From NCBI GenBank assembly GCA_041484665.1, contig JBGPIA010000001.1:192001-256000 (forward strand): DNA of 64,000 nucleotides, read 5' to 3'. Numbering within the stretch: the first letter of the stretch is position 1; every line of letters starts with the position of its first letter. This stretch comes from Candidatus Krumholzibacteriia bacterium. GTDB taxonomy: Bacteria > Krumholzibacteriota > Krumholzibacteriia > JAJRXK01. A program made the position numbers. Positions 1 to 33,000 of this stretch are shown here, piece after piece.

Positions 1-3000
1 CAGCCAGCGACGGCGCTGCCAGCAATCGGGCACGTACTCGCTCTGGTGCGGGTCGGTGCTGGGAATGAAATAGGCGGCAACACCGTGCTTCTCCATCAGC
101 ATGCGCAGGGCCTCGATCTTGTCCCTGGTGCTCATCATCGTCACATCCTCTCCGTCGCCCCGTCGTCTTGGTGCTTGCTCTCGTTTCTACGTCGGCGGCG
201 GCTGTCGCCCGCCCCGCCGGATGGCCGAGGTGCGCCCCTCCGGGTAGCGAGGTGCGCCCCACCGCGCGGCCAGCTACCTCGCCGGCAGCGGTCTCACGCC
301 CATGGCCGGCCGCGTACGGTTCGCCACGCTCAGACCGGCGCCAGATGCTCCCCGTCGACCGCAACCGCGCCCTCCCGCGCCAGCTTGGACACCACAGACT
401 GGACGCTGAGGGCGGCGAAGCCATGCATCGAAGCCGGGACGTCGGTGTAGACCCGCGTCACGACCTCCGCAATGGTCCCGGCGCCATCGCGGATGGCGGC
501 CAGGATCGCCGCCTCGCGCGCGCGGCGGTGGGCGAGCTGCGCCACGACGGCCGCTGCGCCTGCCGCCGCGGCCGGGCCGTGCGATGGGAACACCACCCGG
601 GCGGGCAGCTTCGCCAGGCGCTCGAGCGACTCCATGTATTGGACCATGTCTCCGTCACGCGGGTCCACGAGGATACTGGAAAGCGTCGAGATCATGTCGC
701 CCGCGATCAGGCTGCCGTACTCCCGCTCGAAGAAGCACAGGTGCCCGGCGGCGTGCCCTGGGGTGAAGATCGTCTCCAGCTCCCAGCCCGCGCGCCCGCT
801 GGGCGCGCGGCCCAAGGGCAGGCGGTCGCCGTCCTGCAGCGCCCGGTCGACTGCGATGCTGCCCGCCAGCAGGTCGCGGGTCACCGGGTGGGCCCACACC
901 GGCAGCCGCCAGCGCGCGCGCACGCGCTCGACGGCCCCGATGTGATCGGGATGATGGTGCGTCAGCACGATCGCCGCAAGGCGGCGCCCGCGGTCGCAAG
1001 CCTCCTGGAGCACGTCCTGGAGGCGGGCGCCCTCGTCGTCGTAGGGGGTGGCCGGGTCGAGCAGGTAGGCCGGATCGGAGCCGACGAGAAAGGCGTTCGT
1101 GTGGGTCGCGGGCGGAATCGTCGGCGTACGCAGCGGGATGAGCTGCACCGCCGGATTGTAGAAGATGGGATGGATGCGCCCGCGGGTGAACGCGTCGCCC
1201 ATCCGTGTCATCTCGGCCGCGGCGTCGTCCCACCCGTGCCGCTCGAGCACCTGCAGCAGCAAGAGCACAGGCGGAGCGATCAGCAGCTCGCCCGCTCGCC
1301 AGCGGGCGAGCCAACGCTGCGGCGTGTCCCAGCCTCCGTCCACCAGCTCGCCGGGCCAGATCTGTGGCTCGCCTTGGCCCGGCCGTAGCGCGCCCGATTC
1401 GCTCGACGGCTCGCCGGGCTGCTCCTGCGGCGCACGAGGACCCGCTCGTGGCCGGCCCCCACCCGGGAGGTCGTCGAGGTCGGCCTGGAAGAACTGCGTG
1501 TCGAAGCGCAACAGCGTGAAGGCAGGCGTGACCATGCGCGCCAACGGACGCAGCAGCGCGCCGTTGACCCACCCCGCGCGCTCGCACAGCGCCGCGGCGA
1601 AAACCTCCGGATCGACAATCAGGCGTCGGCGCAGGTCATCGCTCTGCACGGCTTCCAGCGGGGGCGATAGCTCCGCCAGGCAGAGCCCTGTCTCCTCCAG
1701 CGCCTCGCGCGCCACTGCGAACATGAACGCGGCCAGGTCGGGTGGGGCGCCACGCACGCTCGCCGCGTGGGCCCCGTCACTGGCGCTTAGCGTGCCCCCG
1801 GGGAAGGCCCACAGGCCGCCGAAGGCGCGCAGCGTCGGCGCGCGGTGGACCAGGTAGACGCGATCATCCTGCGCGGAGCGCCGCAGCACGAGGCCGCAGG
1901 CCGGACGGATGGAGGGGCGCGCCACCATCAGAACGGCACGTCGCCGCCGGTCTCCTCCTCGAGTTTCTTGCGCAGCTGCTGCGCGTGGGAGCGCAGCGCA
2001 TCCACGACCCCCGCAGGCTTGCCCAGCTGCGTGGCCAGCGCGTCGGACTGGAGCGGCGCCGCGGCCTTGGCCCAGTCGCGCCAGCGCGCGAGCGCCGTTA
2101 CCTGCGGGCAGCTGCTGGCCGCGCGGCCGAAGGCCGCCTCGGCGGCGCTGTACTTCCCGGCGGCGAAGCTGTGCAACCCCTCGTCGTAGGCCAACGCGCC
2201 CGCGAGGCTCGTCGGCATCCAGGACGCCGGATCGCCGCCGGGCGCAGCGACGCCGGCGGTCTTCCACAGCTCTGGCAGCGAGCGCGCCAGCGGCAGCAGC
2301 TCCTGTCCCTTGGCGCCGGGATCGATGGACGGTGACGCTGGCTCCCCCGCGCCCGAGCCGCTCAAGGGGATCAGCGCCAGGCGCACGTGCATGGTGCCGT
2401 CCTCGATCACGAGGAAGCTCGTTGCGAGCACCTTCTCCACGCCGCGCTTGGCCAGCGCTTTGGCCGTAATCGTGCGCGCTTGCGCATCGTCGAAGTCGGA
2501 AACGCCGCGCTTGTCGGCCGCCAGCCAGGCCAGGGTGTGGTCCGGGCCCAGGACGGTGATCCCCTTGGCGCCCTTCAGCCCCATCTCCAGCGCAACCGCC
2601 AGCGCCGATGACGCGCCACCGGCTCCCTTGTCCGACCCCTTGTCGGCGCCGCCCAGATCCGCGGGAGGCAGCATGGCCACGGTTGCCGCTCCCGCGCCGG
2701 CATCGTCATCACCGGGCTCGGCGGTCTGGGCTGCGGCGCGCAGCAACGACGCGCGCGTGCGCAGTCGCGCGGAGATTCCGGGCAACAGAACCCCCGCGCG
2801 CTCGTAGTCCTTCGCCGCTCCCTCGCCATCGCCGAGCATCTCGAGGGTCAGCGCGTGATAGCCGGCCAGGTACGGATCGTCAGCGAGCTGCGGGGCGGCG
2901 CGCTCGAGCGCCACCCGGGCATCCTTGTAGAGCCCCAGCCGCGCCTGCACGATGCCGAGGTCGCGCCAGCCAAGGGGGTCGTTGGGCTTGGAGGCCACCT

Positions 3001-30000: not shown

Positions 30001-33000
30001 TCGGTCGCCAATGCGGTGCGCAAGGGGCGCGCCGGGCTCAAGCGCCCCAACCTCCCGGTGGGCAGTTTCCTGTTCCTGGGGCCTACCGGCACGGGCAAGA
30101 CCGAGTTGGCCAAGACCCTGGCGGAGTTCCTGTTCGCGGACGAGAAGGCGATGATCCGCTTCGACATGAGCGAGTTCCAGCAGGAGCACACCGTGCAGCG
30201 CATGATCGGCGCCCCTCCCGGCTACGTCGGCTACGAGGAGGGCGGCCAGCTTACCGAGGCCGTGCGCCGCAAGCCGTACTGCGTGCTGCTCTTCGACGAG
30301 ATCGAGAAGGCCAACAAGCGCGTCTTCGACATCTTCCTGCAAGTGCTCGACGACGGCCGGCTGACCGACGGCCAGAGCCGTACGGTGGACTTCTCCAACA
30401 CCGTGGTGATCATGACCAGCAACATGGGCGGTCTTTGGATCGCGGAGCAAGACACCGCAGGCAAGCCCATCGACCCCACGTACCTTCGGAACATGCTCAT
30501 CGACGAGGGGCGCGGGCTGCGGCCGGAGTTCGTGAACCGCTTCGACGAGTTCGTGATCTTCCACAGCCTCAAGCACGAGGAGGTCCGCCAGATCCTCGAG
30601 CTGCAGCTGAAGGGGCTGCGCAAGATGCTCAAGGCGCAGGGGCTCTCGCTTTCGGTCAGCGATCCTGCCATGACGAAGCTGGCGCAGTGGAGCTACGACC
30701 CGGCGATGGGCGCCCGCCCGGTGCGCCGCACGATCGACCAACGCATCATCAATCCGCTGTCCGAGAAGATCGTCAGCGCCCCCGAGACAGCGGGCAAGAC
30801 CGTCCAGGTCGATGTGGCGGGCGACGAGCTCGCGATCTCGGTCGTCTAAAGCTCGTGCCACTTGCCGGCGAAGTCTCGGCGGCGATGGTCTGGGTCGCTC
30901 GCGGTTCCACGCGTCTGTGAGCCTGCCGCGTGGCGCGAATGTGACAAAACTGTTGCGTCGCGCGCTCTGCGTCCGCTGGCTACAGCCGCCCGGAGCCGGT
31001 ACCTTCTCCGCCATCCCCCTTCTCCCCGATCCCCCTGCTACGTCCATGGGAGGTCCCCAGAGTGTCCAAGACCAAAATCACGGCCATCGCCCTCTGCGGC
31101 GTCCTGATCGTTGCTACAGCGTCGCCGGCGCTGTTGGCGGCCGAGCCGCCGGCTCAGCCCACTGCCCAGAAGATGGAAAGCGAGGCGAAGAAGGCGGCCG
31201 AGACCCCGGCACCCAAGGACATGTCCGTCGTCGGCGAGGTCGTCGACATGGGTTGCTACATGGCGCACCCCGCGACGGGCAAGGGCCCGGGGCACAAGGA
31301 GTGCGCGATGGCGTGTGTCAAGGGTGGCATGCCCATTGGTCTCCTGACGGATGACGGCAAGCTCTTCGTGCTGCTGCCCCCGCACGAGGGCACGGAGGGC
31401 TACGTCAAGTTGCACGAGCTGGTCGCCGAGCGCGTGACCGTGAACGGAACGGTGATGATGTCCGCGGGCGTCAACGCCATCACCGTCAAGTCGGCGGAGA
31501 AGGCTCCGGCGGCCACCAAGAGCTGATGCGGGCGCGCCGACGCGCGACCTTCGTCATGATCCTCGGCGCCGTTCTCCTGCTGGAGAACGGCGCCCTGGCG
31601 GTGTGGCTGGGTGCGCGCCACTTCCGCACGCCGCAGAGCGCTCCGCTCGAGCGCGGCCGCCGCGTGGCCGAGCGCCTTGGCTGCTTCACCTGCCACGGTC
31701 CCGACGGCGGGCGCGGGGTCCCCAATCCAGGCAGCCGCTCCGGCAACGTCCCCGTGTGGCGCGGCGGAACGCTCATGATGTTCGCGGAAAGCGACGCTGA
31801 GATCTCGGAGTGGATCCTCGATGGAGCGCCGCGCCGACTGCGCGCCCAGCCGGACTTTGCGCATGAGCGCGCGCAGGCGCTGCTGGCGATGCCTGCGTTC
31901 CGTGGCAAAGTGGAAGGGCGCGACTTCGAGGACTTGCTGGCCTTTTTCCGCGCGGTGGCTGCGGCCGACCCGGTGGATGATGTCACGGCAGCGCGCGGCC
32001 GGGAGATCGCAGTCGACCGCGGCTGCTTCGGCTGCCACGGGCCGCAGGGGCGCGGCAACGCCAGCAATCCGGGCTCGTTCAAGGGCTACATCCCATCCTG
32101 GGATGGTCCCGATTTCCCCGATCTGGTCCAGAGCGATGCGGAGCTGCGCGAGTGGATCCTCGACGGGAGCGCACGGCGCTTGCGCGAGCACCCGATCGCG
32201 CGCCACTTCCTGGCGCAGCAGGCGATCCGGATGCCGGCCTTCCGGCCCCACCTCGGCGCAGACGAGGTGGACGCGCTTGTCGCGTACATCCACTGGCTGC
32301 GTGGCGCCTCGCCGTAGTGAGGATGAGCCGGCGGGCGTCGCGCGCGTGCGTGATTCCTGGCCCCTGCGGCCCGCCGTCCCGGCACGGCCCAATTTCGCAC
32401 TACCCAAATCCCGGGTGCCCGCCTATTGTAAGGCGGCTTTTGCGTCACCTTCGATCCGGAAGGTGCCCGACAAGGGAAGACGAAGAGGGAGATTGATCAG
32501 GTATGCGCAAGACGTGGATCGTTCTGCCGGCTTTGCTCGCTCTGGCCGTGATGATCGGGTGCGCGAAGCCGCCACAGGTTGATGTCGACGCGGCGAAGGC
32601 TGCCCTGGAGGCTGCCAAGGCCGCGGGCGCCACTGAGTACGCGCAGAGCTCGCTGAACGCGGCCCAGGACGCCAATGCCCAGCTCGACGCCGAGTTGACG
32701 GCACAGCAGGGCAAGTTCGCCCTGACCCGTTCCTACAAGAAGGCCACTGAGCTGGCGGCTGCGGCCAAGTCCGCGGGCGACAAGGCCGCGACCGACGCGG
32801 CGTCGGGGAAGGCTGCGGCTCAAAGGGAGGCTAGCAACCTGATCGCTCAGGCCAAGACCGCCCTCGAGGAAGCCAAGGGGCTGCTGGACAAGGCGCCCAA
32901 GGGCAAAGGAACGCAGGCGGATCTGGAGGCCCTGAAGGCCGACCTCGCCGGCGTGGAGTCGGCGATCACCGAGGCCGACAACGCCATGACTGGGCAGAAG

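Follow-up and report, generated by a model that had tools for sequence, protein, structure and literature searches.

A T6SS-iii-like cluster outside Bacteroidota with a DO-GTPase-family protein and a tail-anchored helical protein at the membrane-complex position

How is the tail of a type VI secretion system (T6SS) held at the envelope when its gene cluster contains no recognisable membrane complex? The question is raised by a cluster at positions 1928-30849 of a window of 64,000 nucleotides, the whole stretch of DNA analysed here, from a Candidatus Krumholzibacteriia bacterium. Only two T6SS membrane complexes, TssJLM and TssNQOPR, are described in the literature searched, and no third anchor of this kind was found there. 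The membrane-complex position of this T6SS-iii-like cluster is occupied by a DO-GTPase-family protein and a tail-anchored protein, g163, an arrangement whose conservation far beyond chance is supported by the loci examined. A third kind of T6SS membrane complex, composed of g163, the GTPase g162 and g160 and co-opted from a DO-GTPase/GAP1 system, appears to be the probable explanation.

Tail genes of the cluster

Pfam and NCBIfam return these tail parts: TssB/TssC sheath, Hcp tube, VgrG spike, TssE/F/G/K baseplate and a Clp ATPase. All genes named in the first-pass annotation retained their coordinates and Pfam matches in a Pfam scan of the window proteins.

28402..30849, plus strand: ClpV/TssH-type Clp ATPase, 815 aa (Pfam AAA_2, Clp_N; adjoins tssB in related loci)
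27643..28089, minus strand: TssB, small sheath subunit, 148 aa (PF05591 8.8e-7; TIGR03358 1.2e-6)
26189..27628, minus strand: TssC, large sheath subunit of T6SS-iii type, 479 aa (PF17541 3.4e-62)
25725..26123, minus strand: Hcp/TssD 1 (PF17642 2.6e-17)
25175..25606, minus strand: Hcp/TssD 2 (PF17642 2.1e-11)
23257..25083, minus strand: VgrG, 608 aa, with no effector domain by Pfam or NCBIfam (Phage_base_V, Phage_GPD; NF033848 1.6e-53)
22863..23255, minus strand: TssE (GPW_gp25 1.2e-8)
21099..22850, minus strand: TssF (PF05947 2.5e-6)
20132..21106, minus strand: TssG, 324 aa (PF06996 1.8e-18)
13738..15207, minus strand: TssK, 489 aa (PF05936, T6SS_VasE, 5.4e-5; TIGR03353 2.7e-9)

The ClpV/TssH name rests on gene order, because NCBIfam ranks ClpB over TssH. 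In its sheath, tube and baseplate the system most resembles the T6SS-iii of Bacteroidota: TssC and TssD belong to PF17541 and PF17642, Bacteroides finegoldii proteins are matched by the profiles of TssB, C, F, G and K, and the plasmid matches of TssC are all from Bacteroidota (10/10, identity 26-31%). As in T6SS-iii, a gene for the membrane connector, here a candidate one, lies beside tssK, and TssA was not found. The C-terminal part of TssK, on the other hand, is lineage-specific, as the family profile aligns with the B. finegoldii protein over positions 2-339 of 482 only and leaves the last ~140 profile positions unaligned. The distribution survey within Bongiovanni et al. 2024 (PMC10781749) reports T6SS-iii as confined to Bacteroidota, with none in over 20,000 complete genomes of other bacteria; the system in the window lies outside that range.

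Search for known membrane complexes

Neither TssJLM nor TssNQOPR had been found in the cluster before, and Pfam and phmmer searches gave the same result. The TssM N-domain (IcmF-related_N, PF14331) was detected in 0/5 and 0/4 genomes and DotU/TssL (PF09850) in 0/5, the E. coli control being positive for each; TssJ and TssA were not recovered by single-sequence phmmer with the E. coli W proteins. No TssN (PF17555) or TssR was detected in five genomes by models for which genome controls gave no signal, while the TssN and TssO models do match B. finegoldii proteins. TssO, TssP, TssQ and TssR were not found by Pfam or phmmer, again with no signal from the TssR control; B. finegoldii queries recovered TssB, TssC and TssK from this genome, but those for TssN-R had no match at E<=0.01. 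TssO and TssQ are described in the same survey (PMC10781749) as diverging beyond profile reach. The gene after tssK has one C-terminal transmembrane (TM) segment, against the five TM helices and cytoplasmic domain of TssN.

Genes downstream of tssK

According to that survey's account of gene order (PMC10781749), T6SS types encode a baseplate-docking membrane protein next to tssK. In the window, the next four genes after tssK are the following.

12628..13650, minus strand: g163, tail-anchored all-helical protein, 340 aa (AF2, synteny; proposed TssL-like role)
10180..12624, minus strand: g162, membrane-anchored DO-GTPase-family protein, 814 aa (Pfam, AF2, synteny; proposed TssM-like role)
7107..10133, minus strand: g161, GAP1-N2 protein, 1008 aa, optional (PF20013 3.9e-9)
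6390..6974, minus strand: g160, signal peptide and VirB10/TrbI-like domain, 194 aa (proposed outer-membrane partner)

The conserved core of the locus is TssK-g163-GTPase-g160, not GTPase-GAP1. Among 80 GTDB loci, TssK precedes g163 in 76/76 with room, the GTPase directly follows g163 in 78/78 (and in 66/70 metagenome loci), and g160 comes after the GTPase in 58/59. There is one G060-type class of exceptions: in L178 and L179 a g160 gene was not detected in the vicinity of the GTPase, and L080 lacks g160 and has a short GTPase. Among the loci examined, none of the remaining genes is invariant. The protein g160, previously listed as unknown, is the invariant fourth gene of the core. The GTPase/GAP1 pair, by contrast, does not hold as a conserved module: GAP1 is found by Pfam in 2/208 genomes of the phylum and in 0/80 of the GTDB main-clade loci, and is kept in the clade of the window and in some divergent clades, whose versions measure 270-310 aa. 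In the window GAP1-N2, the sole GAP1 domain of g161 in the Pfam scan, which showed neither GAP1-M nor GAP1-C, directly follows the GTPase; g161 also has a TM segment at 339-357 and a long C-terminal region.

The AF2 model of g163 (pLDDT 89.4) comprises a cytoplasmic helical domain, an amphipathic helix at 242-259, one TM segment at 278-296 and a short periplasmic helix. It has no clear fold match, generic helical repeats giving the highest Z (7.5), and neither fold comparison nor hhalign profiles link it to TssL. The model of g162 displays a basic amphipathic N-terminal helix, a Ras-like domain at 33-318, one TM segment at about 320-349, a helical periplasmic arm and a C-terminal beta domain. 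The arm, 380-470 aa across the family, matches TssM in neither profile nor single-sequence comparison.

The product of g160, with GTG as start codon and AGGAGG upstream, has no lipobox Cys and belongs to a family whose members measure about 170-195 aa and carry a cleavable signal peptide. Pfam and profile searches give it no direct match to VirB10/PF03743. The link has two steps: g160 matches a bridge family of small TrbI-like proteins (97.7% over 145 columns), whose members match PF03743 weakly, and the bridge matches VirB10 (75.8%, E 2.3e-5); the Atlas lead to VirB10/TrbI is 0.76. In contrast to the VirB10/TrbI of type IV secretion systems, g160 has no inner-membrane anchor or linker, and the loci contain no other T4SS genes. 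Weaker relatives are also present in 24 genomes that do not have this T6SS, and the domain is therefore not T6SS-specific.

Distribution and co-inheritance

The GTPase is present in 21/208 genomes of the phylum, the same count as in the first-pass annotation, which had placed TssC in 19 of 207 by Pfam look-up; the TssC figure now rises to 22/208, 21 strong and one weak. The genomes with the GTPase and those with strong TssC are the same 21. Where the GTPase has left the T6SS cluster, it is retained elsewhere in the genome in 4/4 cases, with g160 beside it in 3/3 with room. T6SS of this kind occurs in uncultured bacteria of two phyla. Among 201 genomes of the second phylum, g163 is found in 98, TssM in 20 and both in one, against ~10 joint occurrences expected; kin are not independent. 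This near exclusion of TssM could instead arise from lineage sorting, or because a genome keeps a single T6SS.

A candidate membrane complex

The observations favour the GTPase module as a membrane complex more than as a regulator or an effector/immunity pair. Its predicted topology fits a complex: two inner-membrane proteins with cytoplasmic domains, the periplasmic arm and a secreted partner. As described in 10.1101/2023.03.22.533729, TssM/IcmF shares this layout and likewise has a Ras-like domain. In the proposed complex, g163 and the GTPase domain would lie at the inner membrane and hold the baseplate via TssK, in the manner of TssL and TssM; the arm of g162 would cross the periplasm to g160, which the C-terminal beta domain of g162 would bind.

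Complex prediction weakly backs the binding of arm and g160. Homologues from L073 score 0.52 against 0.00 for the best control, in a range (0.60 or under) that contains both of the 2/215 mismatched pairs and 18 of the 116/157 solved pairs reaching the mark. Runs share at least 85% of contacts, and partner pLDDT is at least 84. VirB10 has membrane-crossing helices, and the VirB10-like domain of g160 has a short hydrophobic hairpin at the corresponding site; rings of g160 may form or mark the outer-membrane exit. Alternatively, the outer-membrane pore could come from two often-linked genes, those of a CsgG-like protein and a probable barrel. GTP binding is probably the switch for assembly or firing. 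A DO-GTPase system of GAP1-N2 type is the most likely source of both the GTPase and GAP1; some clades would have retained GAP1 as a regulator, and the main clade would have lost it.

If true, a third anchor, found in about half of the sampled second-phylum genomes, would mean that the docking of phage-like tails to envelopes happened three times or more. It would also give DO-GTPases and GAP1 a first concrete, testable job, and g162, as a TssM-like protein with intact GTPase motifs, would offer a way to ask what nucleotide hydrolysis does in T6SS assembly. A broader scenario is doubtful as a whole: that this is a third T6SS subtype, frequent in two uncultured phyla, with a membrane complex that combines a minimal VirB10-like outer-membrane ring with a DO-GTPase/GAP1 conflict module; that a true GTP switch gates assembly or firing, regulated by GAP1 where kept; that TssM/IcmF is an older recruit of the same DO-GTPase radiation; and that TssNQOPR is a later replacement on this tail.

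Ancestry of the GTPase

Pfam scores of g162 exceed the cut-off (DO-GTPase2 1.1e-7, DO-GTPase1 1.7e-6), the GPSNVGKS (P-loop), DYKGE and TKAD motifs are intact, and the Ras-like fold matches a RagA-like GTPase (VIA Z 15.8, rmsd 2.7, 178 aligned). It is a TRAFAC GTPase with the Walker B Glu (DYKGE) of the DO-GTPase family, where its nearest relatives lie. With the GTPase-centric DO-GTPase/GAP1-N2 conflict systems (Kaur et al. 2020, PMC7159879) the locus shares the DO-GTPase domain, the Walker B Glu, GAP1-N2 downstream and TM segments on both proteins. It differs in being embedded in a T6SS, in its single GTPase copy without an N-terminal zinc ribbon, in the loss of GAP1 from most loci and in the frequent replacement of the Walker B Glu in the main clade. 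Pfam finds no FNIII-repeat or effector gene of such systems in the cluster, although FNIII repeats evolve fast and g159 is beta-rich.

The similarity to T6SS-i (TssJ-TssL-TssM; also DotU/IcmF of Dot/Icm) extends to the gene order: TssK, a tail-anchored helical protein, a Ras-like NTPase with TM segment, arm and beta domain, and an exported partner. The genes g163, g162 and g160 might be very divergent orthologues of TssL, TssM and TssJ, in which case a T6SS-i membrane complex would carry a T6SS-iii tail; such a complex would work as proposed above and differ in ancestry alone. The gene order is K-L-M-like, and the GTPase profile matches the TssM N-domain (96.4%, E 1.2e-9, 158 columns), yet other DO-GTPases match it equally (97.7%), and single-sequence hhalign reaches E<1e-3 for 6/10 ordinary GTPases of the genome against 8/20 T6SS GTPases. 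The G[FY] four residues past TKxD, seen in 28/32 T6SS GTPases, 15/21 TssM and 6/51 other DO-GTPases, points towards TssM, as does the G4-G5 spacing (72, 106 and 38, respectively). A quick tree nevertheless places the family among DO-GTPases, apart from TssM; G1-G4 are intact as in DO-GTPases, g162 has no TssM N-terminal TM hairpin, and g160 is VirB10-like with a non-lipoprotein signal peptide. Judged from sequence, the TssM link of g162 is generic Ras-fold similarity only, and we consider orthology improbable.

Flanking genes

The remaining genes of the cluster lie on both sides of the core.

19060..20067, plus strand: g168, predicted lipoprotein, accessory (hydrophobic N-terminus with Cys)
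18116..19063, plus strand: g167, secreted, beta-rich, accessory (sequence features)
16947..18119, plus strand: g166, secreted, beta-rich, by sequence pattern probably an outer-membrane barrel (no Pfam match)
15664..16950, plus strand: g165, TPR lipoprotein with CsgG-like domain, 428 aa, accessory (TPR; p349 profile 2.9e-11)
4772..6304, minus strand: g159, N-terminally anchored or secreted, beta-rich (no Pfam match)
3369..4718, minus strand: g158, secreted TPR/CsgG-like protein of the p349 family, accessory (TPR; p349 profile 3.1e-12)
1928..3292, minus strand: g157, TPR lipoprotein-like protein, not conserved (TPR)

The GTPase module might alternatively act on the T6SS as the kind of sensor or regulator that Kaur et al. 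describe, with the CsgG-like/TPR/barrel operon or unlinked genes as the real channel. The DO-GTPase kinship and the GAP1-N2 gene after the GTPase in the window and in divergent clades agree with this, as do CsgG (PF03783) in members of the p349 family and the kinase and PP2C genes linked to related loci. The g165/g166 operon, however, is present in 34/43 GTDB loci with room and missing from 9/43, and g166 has homologues in 36/208 genomes, 16 of them without TssC; g165-g168 is an operon linked to the T6SS, not specific to it. GAP1 is absent from the main clade, and the core leaves no other invariant candidate. We hold this reading to be as improbable as orthology. The earlier placing of g165/g166 homologues at every T6SS locus does not stand.

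Least probable is a machine tethered to the inner membrane only, or released on lysis, with no standing trans-envelope channel: Pfam recognises no effector or immunity gene in the window cluster, and the PAAR gene lies on another contig, but conservation covers the sheath-recycling Clp ATPase beside tssB, the periplasmic arm and the secreted protein g160, and sheath and tube are of T6SS type. Homologues of g159 and g157 are absent from the 80 loci, and those of g167 and g168 occur only in the closest relatives, L194 and L204.

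Composition and type of the secretion system

The type VI secretion (T6SS) cluster lies in sequence of about 70% GC, and its genes follow one another from 30849 down to 1928, with two apparently unrelated genes at its borders.

Gene order, 30849 down to 1928: Clp ATPase, tssB, tssC, two hcp, vgrG, tssE, tssF, tssG
After tssG: g165-g168, an inverted insert of four genes
After the insert: tssK, g163 (tail-anchored helical protein), g162 (GTPase), g161 (GAP1-N2 protein), g160 (secreted protein), g159-g157
330-2267, reverse strand: fusion of NUDIX and metallo-beta-lactamase folds, which overlaps g157 at the end of its frame
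31062-32317, forward strand: small secreted protein with diheme cytochrome c

When 30 candidate ORFs were scanned against Pfam, the matches reported by the first-pass annotation were recovered. Gaps of 87, 3 and 46 bases separate the genes from tssK to g161. Several gene starts were refined; g160 begins with a GTG at 6974, preceded by AGGAGG. Contig C3 of the same genome encodes a PAAR domain as part of a 607-aa protein that also has a peptidoglycan-binding domain. The nearest named homologues bear the source labels Krumholzibacteria and Zixibacteria, from which the window probably belongs to Krumholzibacteriota.

TssC belongs to PF17541 (3.4e-62) and both Hcp proteins to PF17642, and all ten plasmid matches to TssC come from Bacteroidota. 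For TssB, C, F, G and K the family profiles find counterparts in Bacteroides finegoldii, the TssK alignment being limited to profile positions 2-339 of 482. A quick TssC tree (25 rows) groups the window-type systems with Bacteroidota; these fall inside the new group, with support so weak and a root on such long branches that the branching order cannot be read. The TssNQOPR membrane complex was defined in PMC10781749, which reports T6SS-iii from Bacteroidota alone.

The lack of known membrane-complex genes, claimed at first pass, is borne out by Pfam and phmmer, subject to the silent TssN and TssR controls described here. IcmF-related_N was found in 0/5 and 0/4 genomes having a window-type T6SS, and DotU in none of five genomes (four with a window-type T6SS, and G167, which carries a divergent one), the E. 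coli controls being positive for both. The Pfam models of TssN and TssR found nothing in five genomes, where the positive controls were also silent; the TssN and TssO models do detect the B. finegoldii proteins. In this genome, 94% complete, phmmer at E<=0.01 found neither TssN, TssP, TssR, DUF5457 nor the two TssO of B. finegoldii, nor TssJ, L, M or A of E. coli W, while recovering TssB, C and K.

A conserved core of TssK, g163, GTPase and g160

The GTPase occurs in 21 of 208 genomes of the phylum, as counted before, and a strong TssC is present in exactly these 21; in the 22nd TssC genome, G167, the TssC is weak, the GTPase is missing and the cluster is a different one. Among 80 of 94 loci kept from a GTDB scan with the g163 alignment, TssK precedes g163 in 76/76, the GTPase follows g163 in 78/78 and g160 follows the GTPase in 58/59 loci where the neighbouring position lies within the sequence. 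A metagenome scan with divergent GTPases as query (80 of 111 loci kept) placed g163 before the GTPase in 66/70 loci, and g160 (49) or GAP1 (7) after it in 56/56. The two sets overlap and their loci are kin, so these counts should not be read as independent trials. The cluster stops at g163 in four genomes, all of which keep the GTPase elsewhere, adjoined by g160 in all three with room.

Of the 201 genomes sampled in the phylum of genome G208, 98 carry g163 and 20 carry TssM-N, and G321 alone has both (Fisher p 2e-5, overstated by kinship). Records labelled Acidoferrum, Ignavibacterium and Ignavibacteriales all fall in this phylum, which we infer to be Zixibacteria; the range shown therefore spans two phyla, not four. 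This T6SS variant is real and widespread, and it probably possesses a third type of membrane complex.

Two T6SS types are thus nearly exclusive in the second phylum, the canonical TssM occurring at loci L140-L160. In the clade of loci L280-L283, L218, L227 and L236, the GTPase and g160 have left the tail cluster and stand downstream of a different, conserved series of genes, and in G295, of the relocated-GTPase clade, a PAAR gene accompanies them.

The first-pass annotation had placed GAP1 in the core, which its distribution contradicts: GAP1-N2 occurs in 2 of 208 genomes (Pfam) and, with an improved profile, in none of the 80 GTDB loci. Divergent clades carry versions of 270-310 aa directly after the GTPase, and five of six tested match PF20013 (1.8e-5 to 8e-3). 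Nor do g165 and g166 stand at every related locus, as had been stated; only 34 of 43 loci with room carry their operon, and g166 homologues, found in 36 of 208 genomes, occur in 16 that lack TssC. Both were rejected as core parts. For g157 and g159 no homologue was found among the 80 GTDB loci. At L073:13805-20400 and many other loci a convergent operon encodes a kinase-TM-PEGA protein, a CsgG/TPR protein, a TPR lipoprotein, a probable barrel and a lipoprotein; its g166 member is also present in genomes without a T6SS.

Architecture of the putative membrane complex

The g163 model is confident (pLDDT 89.4, 95 rows) and comprises a helical cytoplasmic domain, an amphipathic helix, a TM segment and a short periplasmic helix; fold searches gave generic helical matches only (best Z 7.5). 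Identity with TssL found no support: the Foldseek and VIA lists contained no TssL entry, hhalign was negative and the Atlas gave no match. Identity with TssO was rejected for reasons of topology, the 14.8-bit match pairing a cytoplasmic helix of g163 with a periplasmic one of TssO.

The g162 protein begins with a basic amphipathic helix and carries the motifs G1 GPSNVGKS, G3 DYKGE and G4 TKAD; a single TM segment comes next, then a helical region, and the C-terminus forms a beta domain (model pLDDT 69.9). Residues 33-318 resemble small GTPases, best a RagA-like protein (Z 15.8, rmsd 2.7, 178 aligned); fold searches, made with these residues only, returned no TssM. The periplasmic arm matched neither the PDB nor TssM. 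Among 1.84 billion representatives a profile search found 426 matches, and the 66 scanned were mostly DO-GTPases, one with a weak IcmF-related_N match.

It is unlikely that the anchor genes are divergent TssJLM orthologues. The IcmF/TssM domain is described as Ras-like in 10.1101/2023.03.22.533729; according to PMC6517824, the structure of the cytoplasmic domain of TssM had not been solved. The TssM-N profile matches the g162 family at 96.4%, and other DO-GTPases at 97.7%. An hmmsearch control favours the link (above 8 bits in 12/32 and 10/54, against 0/10 ordinary GTPases), but in single-sequence hhalign ordinary GTPases match TssM-N about equally well, and g162 was rejected as a TssM orthologue. 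Since the match is unspecific and the family stands apart from TssM in a quick tree (107 rows), g162 is termed a TssM analogue; a G[FY] that both have behind G4, together with the long insert between G4 and G5, hints at a possible distant kinship. The long DO-GTPase-like proteins P0179, P0181 and P0213 measure 1300-1480 aa; P0181 and P0213 share the TssM-like G[FY] and stand near TssM in the quick tree, unsupported. The P0156 and P0167 clusters hold divergent members of the GTPase family labelled Eisenbacteria and Saccharimonadales, depositor labels having proved unreliable elsewhere.

The g160 protein starts with a signal peptide, and close to its C-terminus lies a hydrophobic hairpin that is conserved. 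The nearest Atlas cluster with a family is TrbI-like (0.76), a lead only. Its profile matches five small TrbI-like proteins over 145 columns (97.7%), two of which match PF03743 weakly, and these match seven VirB10 domains at 75.8% (E 2.3e-5); direct comparison of g160 with VirB10 gave no match. Neither PDB sequences nor plasmids matched g160, and no longer homologues were found, which is weak evidence. Of the 21 T6SS genomes, 19 contain a match; one further genome has a strong match and another 24 have weak ones. Small TrbI-like, lipoprotein-type paralogues with glycine-rich helices lie in the window's own genome at C7:191457-192122 and C18:13009-13755, with no secretion cluster adjoining.

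A complex of arm and g160, a pairing chosen beforehand from gene order, was predicted for the homologues at locus L073 (last 181 GTPase residues and g160, 86 rows each). The score of 0.52, against 0.00 for the best of three controls, lends weak support; contacts agree to at least 85% and partner pLDDT is at least 84. In calibration 116 of 157 solved pairs attained the mark, as did 2 of 215 mismatched ones, and scores up to 0.60 comprised 18 solved pairs and both mismatches. Mutual information between arm and g160 peaked at Z 7.7, against 4.9-6.8 in five shuffles, which neither supports nor contradicts coevolution.

In the arrangement that we consider likely, TssK would be docked at the inner membrane by g163 together with the GTPase domain, the g162 arm would cross the periplasm and g160 would take it up at the outer membrane; GTP would be the switch, and GAP1 a regulator present in some systems only. 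DO-GTPase/GAP1 systems were defined in PMC7159879, the sole full text found with both 'type VI secretion' and 'double-GTPase', whose passages covered here draw no link between them. A purely regulatory GTPase module, with the channel elsewhere, we hold just as improbable as divergent TssJLM. That no standing channel exists is more improbable still. No account of a window-type T6SS was found in the literature covered, main texts with few subscription papers among them; such loci could appear in the gene-neighbourhood source data of PMC7159879.

Other variant loci

The divergent T6SS of G167 (L187:9414-19999 and L192) has a weak PF17541 TssC and no GTPase, with a PAAR gene upstream, a phage-lysozyme-like gene nearby and, after TssK, unassigned ORFs about 159 aa and about 341 aa long; it possibly represents another anchor type. 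Upstream of the Clp ATPase in G070 (L296:9420-19608) lie genes for a PP2C phosphatase, two Ser/Thr kinases, an SH3/OMP-barrel protein and a PAAR protein, and an unassigned ORF of 1086 aa; this points to control by phosphorylation and to a possible effector. Variable ORFs of 880-1930 aa, candidate effectors or adhesins, often follow g160 (L064, L084, L210, L228, L238, L241, L244, L251, L262-L269, L271). In one divergent clade (L178-L186, L198, L199) every locus examined has the Clp ATPase divided between two ORFs, one of about 473 aa and one of about 357 aa.
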